A program made the position numbers and the translations under genes. Below the pieces are notes generated by a model. The model saw only the letters and a program-made list of their open reading frames with translations, was not told the origin of the DNA and searched no databases. This document shows positions 4,077 to 16,657 of a stretch of DNA of 47,986 nt, in pieces (the first letter of the stretch is position 1; every line of letters begins with the position of its first letter). The stretch spans positions 1 through 47,986 of the forward strand of contig PWIB01000046.1 in assembly GCA_003555465.1 (NCBI GenBank), in the 5' to 3' direction. Source of the DNA: Candidatus Aenigmatarchaeota archaeon. GTDB lineage: Archaea; Aenigmatarchaeota; Aenigmatarchaeia; PWEA01.

Positions 4077-4143
4077 TACTTGAAAATCAACGACTTTCAA
4101 TATTGTGCTGTATTTTTCATGAACGTTTTTGCGACCGAAGGGA

Positions 4144-4152
4144 GTAAAAAGG
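4144..4152 (-). terminator. oligo-T tract directly after tRNA-Pro
   Basis: The minus strand reads ...CCA-GAACCTTTTTAC immediately 3' of the encoded CCA. Archaeal terminators are typically T-runs. Confidence 0.35.
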
Positions 4153-4155
4153 TTC

Positions 4156-4285
4156 TGGTGGGCCGGCCGTGATTTGTCCAAACCCAAGGTCCAGCCTTTT
4201 GGCTGAAACCTTTTCTAAAGGTTTCTTGAACACGGGTCTGGGCGCCCCGAACGCCCGATGCTAGTCCAGGCTACACCACCGGCCC
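4156..4285 (-). tRNA. tRNA-Pro (anticodon CGG) with a roughly 52-nt intron in the T-loop and an encoded CCA
   Basis: Minus strand reads GGGCCGG-TG-GTGT-AGCCTGGACTA-GCAT-C-GGGCG-TTCGGGG-CGCCC-AGAC-CCGTG-TTCAA[intron]AT-CACGG-CCGGCCC-A-CCA. Acceptor, anticodon and T stems pair perfectly, and the D stem pairs with 2 GU. G37 fits tRNA-Pro. Confidence 0.8.
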
Positions 4286-4310
4286 TGACATATTAACTTA
4301 TACCAAAGGG

Positions 4311-4318
4311 TTTAATAG
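4311..4318 (-). promoter_or_regulatory. TATA-like box for tRNA-Pro
   Basis: The minus strand reads CTATTAAA, 26-33 nt upstream of tRNA position 1. Confidence 0.4.
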
Positions 4319-15325: not shown

Positions 15326-16657
15326 ATGCCAGGCAAGACTCCTGTAAAGAAGGTAAGTGCGAAGAAAGCAAGGAAGAAGGTAAAGACCTTTTCTGAAGAA
15401 GTAGCTCCAAAGCTAGACCCTAAAGCCAGGAACATGTGCCTGAAATGCCGCGGAACCAAGAAGCTTTGTGGTAAGGAAAAATGTCCCGTTCTACAGAAAT
15501 ATTACTCACAGGTCGGTGACGAGAAGAAGAAAAAGTTCGATACCAAGGAGATAGAAGGTAATTCGCCGCCCTCTGTTTTTATTGGAAGGTACAACTACCC
15601 GAAGGTAAACGTTGGTCCTCTCGTTCCTCCTGAAAAGGGCGATACGTCCGTTTATTCTCGTCCTGAGAAGTGGTTCGGAACTGCAGAAATGAACGATATC
15701 ATAGAGATGAGAGGAAATCTTGCAAGAGGGAAGAAAAAGCTCACCAGCGACGTGAAGATAAACAATATTGGAAGGGACGAGCAGGAACTGAGATACCTCG
15801 CTCTGTCAAAGAACCCTGCCGAAACAGAGGTAAAGTTCAAGAAGAATCTCAACGAATCCATGAAGCTTGATGGAAGGTCGCAGCCGCATGGACCTTCCGG
15901 ACCCATGGAATCATTCAAAAGAGGAACTATGAGCTCAGACCAGCGCCTGGAAAAGGTGTTCTACGACAAAGACCTCAAAGCCAACAAAGCCGTGAAGAAA
16001 TTATACAGCAAAGGCGTTTCTGTCTCAAGAATACAGGATATATTTGCAGTTGGTGGAACCGGAATCAAGGAAAAAAGAAAGTTTGTACCAACCAGGTGGA
16101 GTATAACAGCTGTGGACGACATTCTAGGTAAAGACATGAGGAAAAGCGTTAAAACGTATCAAAGGATAAACGAGTGGCGCGTATATAAAACCAACTACCT
16201 TGACAATCAATGGGTAGTCGTGTTTACTCCTGAAACTTGGCGCTACGAGCTAATAGAAGCCTTCTACCCAGAGACGACATGGAATCCTTCAAAGGACTCA
16301 ATAACGATATTCGGAGACCATGAGGAGTTCGACGGGAGAGACGATTATGCTTCCATAGGAGGGTGTTATTACGCTGCTAGGCTCGCAGTACTCGAAAAAC
16401 TTGAAGAGGAAAGGAGGCAGGCCGGTGTCCTTGTGCTGAGGGAGGCGAGACCGGGATACATACTTCCTGTAGGGGTCTGGTTGACGAGAGAATCTATAAG
16501 AAACGCTCTGGGAGCAAGGCCCCGAAAATTTAATTCTTCTGAGGAAGTGTTGGGATTCATCAGGCAACTAACAGACCTGTCTTTAGATGAATGGGTGTCA
16601 GTCTCGAGGCTACTCAAAACCAGAGAAAAGCAAAGGACAATCGAATCTTATCTTTGA
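15326..16657 (+). CDS. nreA: Nre-family DNA repair protein (NreA-like, DUF650/DUF651)
   Basis: It has an N-terminal CLKCRGTKKLCGKEKCP cysteine motif, FIGRYNYP, a C-terminal CYYAARLAVLE and PVGVWLTRESIRNAL. 443 aa. Assigned from recalled family features. Confidence 0.7.
   Translation: MPGKTPVKKVSAKKARKKVKTFSEEVAPKLDPKARNMCLKCRGTKKLCGKEKCPVLQKYYSQVGDEKKKKFDTKEIEGNSPPSVFIGRYNYPKVNVGPLVPPEKGDTSVYSRPEKWFGTAEMNDIIEMRGNLARGKKKLTSDVKINNIGRDEQELRYLALSKNPAETEVKFKKNLNESMKLDGRSQPHGPSGPMESFKRGTMSSDQRLEKVFYDKDLKANKAVKKLYSKGVSVSRIQDIFAVGGTGIKEKRKFVPTRWSITAVDDILGKDMRKSVKTYQRINEWRVYKTNYLDNQWVVVFTPETWRYELIEAFYPETTWNPSKDSITIFGDHEEFDGRDDYASIGGCYYAARLAVLEKLEEERRQAGVLVLREARPGYILPVGVWLTRESIRNALGARPRKFNSSEEVLGFIRQLTDLSLDEWVSVSRLLKTREKQRTIESYL

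Follow-up and report, generated by a model that had tools for sequence, protein, structure and literature searches.

A predicted 52-nt intron in the T-loop of the tRNA-Pro(CGG) gene of an Aenigmatarchaeota archaeon

The tRNA-Pro(CGG) gene and its interrupted T-loop

The window analyzed here, a stretch of 47,986 nucleotides from Candidatus Aenigmatarchaeota archaeon (contig PWIB01000046.1 of assembly GCA_003555465.1), carries a gene for tRNA-Pro(CGG) on its minus strand (Table 1). The acceptor stem has 7 bp (GGGCCGG/CCGGCCC) and is followed by U8 and G9. Two of the four pairs in the D arm (GUGU/GCAU) are G-U pairs, and the anticodon arm (GGGCG/CGCCC) closes the loop UUCGGGG, which places the anticodon CGG before G37. 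A 4-nt variable region, the T stem CCGUG/CACGG, the discriminator A73 and an encoded CCA complete the molecule. In the T-loop, UUCAA is followed by 52 extra nucleotides and then by AU. The initial annotation had drawn the four cloverleaf arms on this strand, with a T arm split by about 52 nt inside the loop, away from 37/38, and with a CCA encoded in the genome. Our reading of the sequence agrees on each of these points, and the arms are also recognized by ARAGORN in the intron-deleted form.

Table 1. Features of the tRNA-Pro(CGG) locus in the window. Arrows mark predicted cuts.
Feature	Positions	Strand	Remarks
tRNA-Pro(CGG) gene, including intron	4156-4285	minus	encoded CCA, 4156-4158
5' exon, tRNA positions 1-58	4226-4285	minus	anticodon CGG, 4247-4249
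52-nt intron	4174-4225	minus	between T-loop nucleotides 58 and 59
3' exon, tRNA positions 59-76	4156-4173	minus	T-loop AU, 3' strands of T stem and acceptor stem, A73, CCA
Promoter-like sequence, AAACCC-TTTGGTATAAG	4297-4313	minus	12-28 nt upstream of the tRNA 5' end; appears to resemble the A-rich/TATA-like boxes before other tRNA genes of the host
3' trailer	4113-4155	minus	directly after CCA; T5 run, 4146-4150; ~90% like the first 42 nt of the host tRNA-Ser(CGA) T-loop intron
H1, exon strand of the 4-bp central helix, GUUC	4228-4231	minus	G53 U54 U55 C56; pairs with 4176-4179
H2, intron strand of the central helix, GGAC	4176-4179	minus	
5' bulge, AA↓G	4225-4227	minus	cut predicted at 4226/4225 from the BHB rule (after the second bulge nucleotide)
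Enlarged 3' bulge, AA↓AUC	4171-4175	minus	5 nt; cut predicted at 4174/4173
h', 5' strand, AAACCU	4219-4224	minus	pairs with 4180-4185; begins the intron rod helix
h', 3' strand, GGGUUU	4180-4185	minus	h' has 6 bp
28-nt hairpin-plus-tail module	4198-4225	minus	hairpin, 4205-4225; tail, AGCCAAA; start of the intron; common to other tRNA introns and other archaeal contexts
Second small hairpin, AGCC-AAAA-GGCU	4193-4204	minus	4 bp

With the insert in place, ARAGORN found no tRNA in the whole window, and Rfam gave no match at the gathering score, nor any around the site at E-values up to 10. When positions 4174-4225 were deleted in silico, ARAGORN called a 78-nt tRNA-Pro(cgg) with a normal cloverleaf. 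This product is identical at 78/78 positions to the intronless tRNA-Pro(CGG) of G001, a congener of the host (60/60 in the 5' exon and 18/18 in the 3' exon). The 130-nt stretch 4156-4285, intron included, folds far better than shuffled versions of itself (z = -4.6; none of 200 shuffles was as good).

The Rfam model RF00005 also misses the intronless tRNA-Pro(CGG) of G001 (G001:C13, L002:4-81), even at E-values up to 1; ARAGORN calls this gene. The UGG isoacceptor, identical at 68 of 75 positions with all 7 differences in the anticodon arm, scores 49.5 bits with the same model. The miss is probably a filter effect, and tRNA-Pro(CGG) can thus escape Rfam even without an intron.

The T5 run in the trailer is a probable terminator. 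In the congeners G002 and G007, the trailer (GAACC, the T5 run and ACUCCC...CGCAAAAACGUUCAUGAAAAA) is conserved at the corresponding place. The tRNA-Ser(CGA) gene whose intron it resembles lies at C4:22093-22315, and related pieces occur in introns on contigs C9, C27 and C40. By sequence similarity, the trailer appears to be a second module common to tRNA trailers and introns.

Predicted splice motif and splicing enzymes

Bulge-helix-bulge (BHB) arrangements were sought at the intron junctions while the cloverleaf arms were held fixed. The scan returned one register with cuts that give a normal tRNA, in which helix h is a 4-bp T stem (CCGU/ACGG). In this register, at 58/59, both predicted cuts lie 2 nt past the 4-bp central helix on opposite strands, and the T-loop of the product is UUCAAAU. 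The 5' bulge has 3 nt. The departures from a strict hBHBh' motif are a 3' bulge of 5 nt instead of 3 and the pair G53-C61, which must open. As modeled, the junction motif is a relaxed BHB and not a strict one. The initial annotation had proposed to look for a BHB motif by folding the region; such a motif does form at the junctions, in this relaxed form with the top T-stem pair opened. A strict BHB at 59/60 on an intact T stem was rejected, because the four bases ahead of a 3-nt bulge before U60 do not allow pairing with UUCA.

The same scan found a second register, shifted by one base (UUCA/UGGA), which would leave a 9-nt T-loop. In the cloverleaf context, the computed fold energies are -43.8 kcal/mol for the 58/59 register, which gives the normal tRNA, -44.4 kcal/mol for the shifted register, -45.9 kcal/mol for a rod with an open internal loop and -44.2 kcal/mol for the two local hairpins of the initial annotation. 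The 58/59 register is thus within ~2 kcal/mol of the best cloverleaf-compatible fold, and the plain rod slightly exceeds both registers in stability. The rod helix prevails in the ensemble of T arm and intron, where P(A62-U106) is 0.66 versus 0.005 for the closing pair of the first hairpin, the 5' arm of which pairs preferentially with the 3' end of the insert. The pairs of either register have probabilities of 0.24-0.35. Since the 58/59 register would regenerate the intronless allele of G001 base for base, it is taken as the working register.

The initial annotation had described two perfect hairpins inside the insert. Both are present, the first with 9 bp. However, the energies and pair probabilities rule them out as the fold relevant to splicing, which is predicted to be the long-range rod helix. 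The first hairpin is still the conserved module discussed below.

The following course of splicing is proposed. In the precursor, G53-U54-U55-C56 and a GGAC situated close to the intron's 3' end would form the 4-bp central helix, and the first intron bases past the 3-nt bulge AA↓G would pair with GGGUUU, so that the rod-like helix of the intron starts there. The 3' splice site would be situated two bases after the central helix, within the 5-nt bulge AA↓AUC. EndA would cut both bulges and RtcB would join the exons, yielding the 7-nt T-loop.

One gene for EndA was found in the host genome (C61:1130-2209, L021). It encodes a protein of 360 aa with two PF02778 and two PF01974 domains in the order N-C-N-C, and among PDB structures it matches 5x89 (E = 4e-35) and 3iey_A (E = 2e-25) best. 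In the C-terminal repeat, the catalytic Tyr and His are present and are separated by an insertion, KKGQKSPDE, whose counterpart in N. equitans alpha is IPKKGKRSERE in the alignment; M. jannaschii, A. fulgidus and M. kandleri lack it. Ser aligns to the third triad position of this repeat, with Lys one residue later (RSK). The N repeat has kept Tyr and His and has no Lys (RSN). On the type of EndA, which the initial annotation had named as a point to check, profiles and alignment point to a single tandem N-C-N-C enzyme with a Nanoarchaeum-like loop insertion. An EndA of the epsilon2 type was rejected, as the gene has two repeats and not three units and 4fz2 is a weak match that ranks only seventh.

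A DPANN-specific loop of EndA has been linked with disrupted tRNA genes (Kaneta et al., 2018; PMC5829648). The insertion in the host enzyme may correspond to loop L3 of that study. Taken together with the many non-canonical introns of the host, the same work suggests that this EndA may be able to cut relaxed, non-canonical motifs. Among the 61 genomes of the class searched, the majority encode EndA in one single-unit gene of 180-240 aa and some in adjacent pairs of genes, and the fused form occurs in the host genus and in G024. A tandem (alpha'2) EndA has been stated to be missing in DPANN (Kaneta et al., 2018; PMC5829648). The host enzyme is a natural fusion of a beta-like and an alpha-like repeat, and relatives with adjacent split genes point to a fused alpha-beta origin.

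RtcB is also present (PF01139, 472.7 bits; contig C60:1491-4211). The match falls into two pieces (profile positions 1-103 and 48-426) that lie ~1.2 kb apart in one open frame of 960 aa, and the gene looks as if it were interrupted by an intein. BHB-like junctions, an EndA with a Nanoarchaeum-like loop insertion and RtcB together support the original proposal of a non-canonical tRNA intron that needs a splicing endonuclease, here in a DPANN-type archaeon.

Host tRNA introns, locus history and the hairpin-plus-tail module

The host assembly (G000) comprises 632 kb in 62 contigs with 46% G+C and is rated 90% complete; its genus is a small-genome DPANN lineage. Plain ARAGORN found 9 tRNA genes, and 25 were found when anticodon-loop introns were allowed. 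RF00005 has 18 matches, which in a genome that is 90% complete implies that intron-hidden tRNA genes are the rule in this host. Because tRNA-Pro(CGG) is invisible to both ARAGORN and Rfam, standard annotation would report it, and most tRNAs of the host, as lacking. Recognition of the insert as a BHB-type intron corrects this apparent absence.

To find further T-loop introns, a script searched for T stems interrupted after UUCRA and followed by a matching acceptor stem. Such introns were found in tRNA-Gln(UUG) on C27 (49 nt; the gene has three introns altogether), tRNA-Gly(CCC) on C9 (51 nt), tRNA-Ser(CGA) on C4 (62 nt) and a Ser-like class II gene, also on C4 (40 nt). With the proline gene included, at least five tRNA genes of the host carry T-loop introns. 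When the T stem is enforced, the four other introns fold into the T stem, an internal loop of 6-7 by 6-7 nt and a long rod. Read as a BHB, this fold would have U54-U55-C56-R57/NGRA as helix H, the bulges AA↓R and AA↓U, and a splice site at 59/60. Site 59/60 corresponds structurally to 37/38 of the anticodon arm, and the proline intron has the same design one base to the 5' side. The T-loop intron of tRNA-Gln(UUG) occurs in seven genomes of two genera (G000, G001, G003, G004, G005, G007 and, in the second genus, G008), in which the junction pairings are kept and the interior differs. As searches with ARAGORN, RF00005 and the T-loop-intron script found no uninterrupted tRNA-Gln(UUG) gene, the conservation of this intron provides good, if indirect, evidence for the removal of T-loop introns in vivo.

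Another tRNA gene, at C18:4015-4146 (L172), has an intact T arm, the acceptor stem GCCCGGA/UCCGGGC and a GCCA end. It is missed by ARAGORN and Rfam, presumably owing to introns in the D and anticodon regions.

The initial annotation had supposed that this may be the sole tRNA decoding CCG and that its splicing would then be essential. The 90%-complete assembly yielded no second gene for tRNA-Pro(CGG), and CCG accounts for 21% of the proline codons (7.4 per thousand of all codons). An intact gene for tRNA-Pro(GGG) lies on C14. tRNA-Pro(UGG), on C60, has two non-canonical introns, a 47-nt intron in the D-loop and a 20-nt insert at 53/54. The case for an essential role is weakened, because tRNA-Pro(UGG) could read CCG by wobble, and the splicing of tRNA-Pro(CGG) is thus not provably indispensable.

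The tRNA-Pro(UGG) locus (C60:14901-15049 and 15927-15945, L171) is unusual in its own right. Its D-loop intron has the same sequence as that in the tRNA-Pro(CGG) of G002 and G003. Its T stem is different (AGGAG/CUCCU), and ~880 bp, including an AT-rich stretch that holds an open frame on the opposite strand, separate it from the original 3' end (AUCACGGCCGGCCCA) downstream. The arrangement suggests the integration of an element that supplied the tRNA with a new 3' end.

The genes flanking tRNA-Pro(CGG) are common to G002, G003, G005, G006 and G007, with 70-78% DNA identity, which identifies the tRNA loci as orthologous. All five syntenic orthologs have a D-loop intron (after position 17) and an uninterrupted T-loop, and the gene of G007 has a compensated change in the anticodon stem. 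The G001 gene, which is intronless, lies at a contig end. tRNA-Pro(CGG) was thus found in six of the seven congeners searched (G001-G003 and G005-G007). Of the 41 genomes searched, the host alone has the T-loop insert in tRNA-Pro(CGG), the exon-junction pattern had no match in metagenome contigs, and exact-protein look-ups of both flanking genes returned no other assembly that carries them. The simplest reading of these sequences is that the host lineage lost the D-loop intron and, probably recently, gained the T-loop intron. One syntenic gene thus occurs in three states across sister species: intronless, with a D-loop intron and with a T-loop intron.

The first 28 nt of the proline intron match the T-loop intron of the G001 tRNA-Gln(UUG) at 27/28 positions. 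The host tRNA-Gln intron is ~94% identical to the T-loop intron of the G001 tRNA-Ser(CGA), while orthologous tRNA-Gln introns differ inside. Similar introns are therefore found in different tRNAs and positions and are more alike than orthologous introns, as is characteristic of a transposing intron family. The three-state locus and an intron front end common to unrelated tRNAs provide material for studies of how archaeal tRNA genes gain and exchange introns.

The shared front end is a hairpin with a short tail, GAAACC-TTTAGAAAA-GGTTTC plus A-G/T-CCAAA. Variants of the same layout open four other host introns at base 1 or 2, namely the tRNA-Gln(UUG) T-loop intron, the 37/38 introns of tRNA-Val(CAC) and tRNA-Cys and one D-arm intron, so that the module is present in five host introns at four positions. 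A loose pattern of the layout has seven matches in the genome, five of them in these tRNA introns, versus ~1 expected in shuffles. The arms covary (AAACC/GGTTT, AAGCC/GGCTT, AACCC/GGGTT, GAAGC/GCTTC and GCAGC/GTTGC), and the loop varies (AGA, CG and CGAGG). Just before H2, the proline and glutamine introns repeat the 3' arm of the hairpin, which means that the 5' arm can switch partners and form the BHB helix h'. The resemblance of the hairpin to the A-rich/TATA-like boxes before host tRNA genes led us to consider a BRE/TATA promoter. The loop varies while the arms covary and five of the seven matches lie in tRNA introns, and the element is more probably a hairpin than a TATA box.

The exact 21-mer occurs in 16 metagenome contigs. 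In the 15 fully flanked matches, the next seven bases (A, T, C, C, A, A, A) are conserved in 11-15 of 15, the conservation ends after the module tail and there is none upstream. As conservation is confined to the hairpin and 7 nt, the unit is 28 nt long with sharp borders. In metagenomes and public genomes, the contexts of the module include sites immediately behind stop codons or behind tRNA genes, the Lys-rich tails of proteins, where it is read in frame as KPLEKVSSK, and, in Methanobacterium contigs, the neighborhood of duplicated starts of an RNase J-like gene. DPANN and methanogen contigs are among those that carry it. Matches to a shorter module pattern in bacteria were many, at chance level for the 596-Gb collection by our estimate (~70).

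In the Methanobacterium-type contigs (L100:5680-5930, L190 and L191), the module lies between two ~95% identical copies of the gene start. The duplicated part comprises the ribosome-binding site and the first ~55 nt of the RNase J-like gene (MSVEVIAIGGYEEVGKN...), and it looks as if this start had been duplicated by an insertion. In G070 (contig C52, L042, ~1320-2020 in the minus-strand view), tandem arrays of a hairpin plus AGCAAAA surround a tRNA-Lys(UUU) gene. The T-loop intron of this gene is one such unit (35 nt), and there are two larger copies with two extra loop hairpins.

We know of no feature that would support the module as a CRISPR repeat, a dif site or an IS200/IS605 end. A paper on omega-RNA (PMC12558985) is unrelated to the module. 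The reading of the module that we favor, tentatively and at less than even odds, is a small mobile palindromic element that would be excisable by EndA at the RNA level, the proline intron having been caught at an early stage of its birth. On entering the T-loop, the element would have brought along a strand able to pair with the universal UUCR. Every tRNA T-loop, or an anticodon loop containing UUCR, could then serve as a landing site, and EndA would repair the RNA. If this is true, the module would be the long-sought vehicle of archaeal tRNA intron gain.

Competing explanations and comparison with known systems

The best explanation, to which we assign a probability of about 0.78, is a working tRNA-Pro(CGG) gene with a recently acquired 52-nt T-loop intron that is spliced by EndA and RtcB, where we infer both the cleavage register and the splicing. 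The intron may have arrived by way of a mobile hairpin-plus-tail cassette that uses the universal T-loop UUCR as its exon pairing partner. As the intron is found in only one genome among 41, selection has had little time to test it. The same restriction to the host would be expected of a fresh pseudogene, in which a mobile hairpin element has entered the T-loop, the precursor is unspliced or mis-spliced and CCG is read by tRNA-Pro(UGG), a gene for which exists. The 5-nt 3' bulge, the equally stable register with a 9-nt T-loop, a junction one base off the four 59/60 T-loop introns of the host and the occurrence of the same 28-nt element where an intron role is impossible also fit a pseudogene. 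On the other hand, the exons match the intronless G001 gene without a single change, neither the promoter-like box nor the T5 run is damaged, and tRNA-Pro(CGG) was found in six of the seven congeners searched. Moreover, the insert supplies the exon-pairing GGAC and the second copy of the 3' arm, GGGUUU, exactly where a BHB needs them, which is unexpected of a random insertion. A pseudogene is therefore regarded as unlikely.

A variant of the spliced gene would be one in which EndA uses both registers and produces the normal tRNA together with a form with a larger T-loop (UUCAAGAAU). A one-base slip in an A-rich stretch separates the two registers, which are isoenergetic, with pair probabilities of 0.24-0.35 for either, and both conform to the EndA rule of symmetric cuts across a 4-bp helix. 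A product with a 9-nt T-loop would probably be discarded by tRNA quality control, which counts against mixed splicing, and we give it little credence. Even less probable is an assembly artefact, by which the 52 nt would have been mis-assembled into a tRNA gene of a metagenome bin. The bin has 62 contigs and the element is repeated in other tRNA genes, both of which would fit an artefact. However, the insert is situated inside a 48-kb contig with both flanks syntenic with congeners, its 3' half is unique in the genome, its junctions are base-precise and BHB-compatible, and the same architecture recurs in four other tRNA genes.

The spliced T-loop intron has its nearest counterparts in ARMAN-2 (Candidatus Micrarchaeum acidiphilum), where pre-tRNA-Cys(GCA) has an intron at 59/60 with a relaxed hBH motif and pre-tRNA-Pro(GGG) has introns at 53/54 and 59/60 (Fujishima et al., 2011; PMC3239211). 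The two cases share a DPANN host, an intron in the T-loop, proline tRNA included, a BHB on the T arm, relaxed or strict, and an endonuclease of broadened specificity, which in our host is a prediction. They differ in that the proline intron described here lies at 58/59, offset by one base to the 5' side of the site that matches 37/38 in structure, and has a 5-nt 3' bulge. In addition, the host is of the Aenigmatarchaeota type, and its EndA is a two-repeat fusion instead of the three-unit epsilon2 enzyme. Intron sites at 53/54, 56/57 and 59/60 have been listed for archaea (PMC4090602).

As to the enzyme, the C repeat of the host EndA aligns with the alpha subunit of N. equitans (3IEY), including the insertion between the catalytic Tyr and His. 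With its beta-like repeat followed by an alpha-like one, the protein also has the layout of the engineered alpha-beta fusion of the M. kandleri EndA (5X89; Kaneta et al., 2018; PMC5829648). Unlike that construct, the host fusion is natural, with Ser as the third triad residue of the C repeat and Lys next to it (RSK), and with RSN in the N repeat.

In Thermoproteales, related introns in different tRNA genes and positions have been described as "large-scale intron transposition" (Sugahara, 2008; Fujishima, 2010; as related in PMC4090602 and bioRxiv 10.64898/2026.10.13.758758), a process that is reported as almost absent in Asgard archaea (bioRxiv 10.64898/2026.10.13.758758). The match of the proline intron to the G001 tRNA-Gln intron over its first 28 nt and that of the host tRNA-Gln intron to the G001 tRNA-Ser(CGA) intron are of the same kind. 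In contrast to Thermoproteales, the host is a DPANN archaeon with a small genome and another EndA architecture, and what the introns have in common is a discrete 28-nt hairpin-plus-tail unit, found outside tRNA genes as well. Descriptions of T-loop introns in DPANN date back to 2011. What the proline intron adds is the 58/59 offset with a 5-nt bulge, and also particular to it are the contrast of presence and absence among syntenic orthologs and the shared 28-nt front end.
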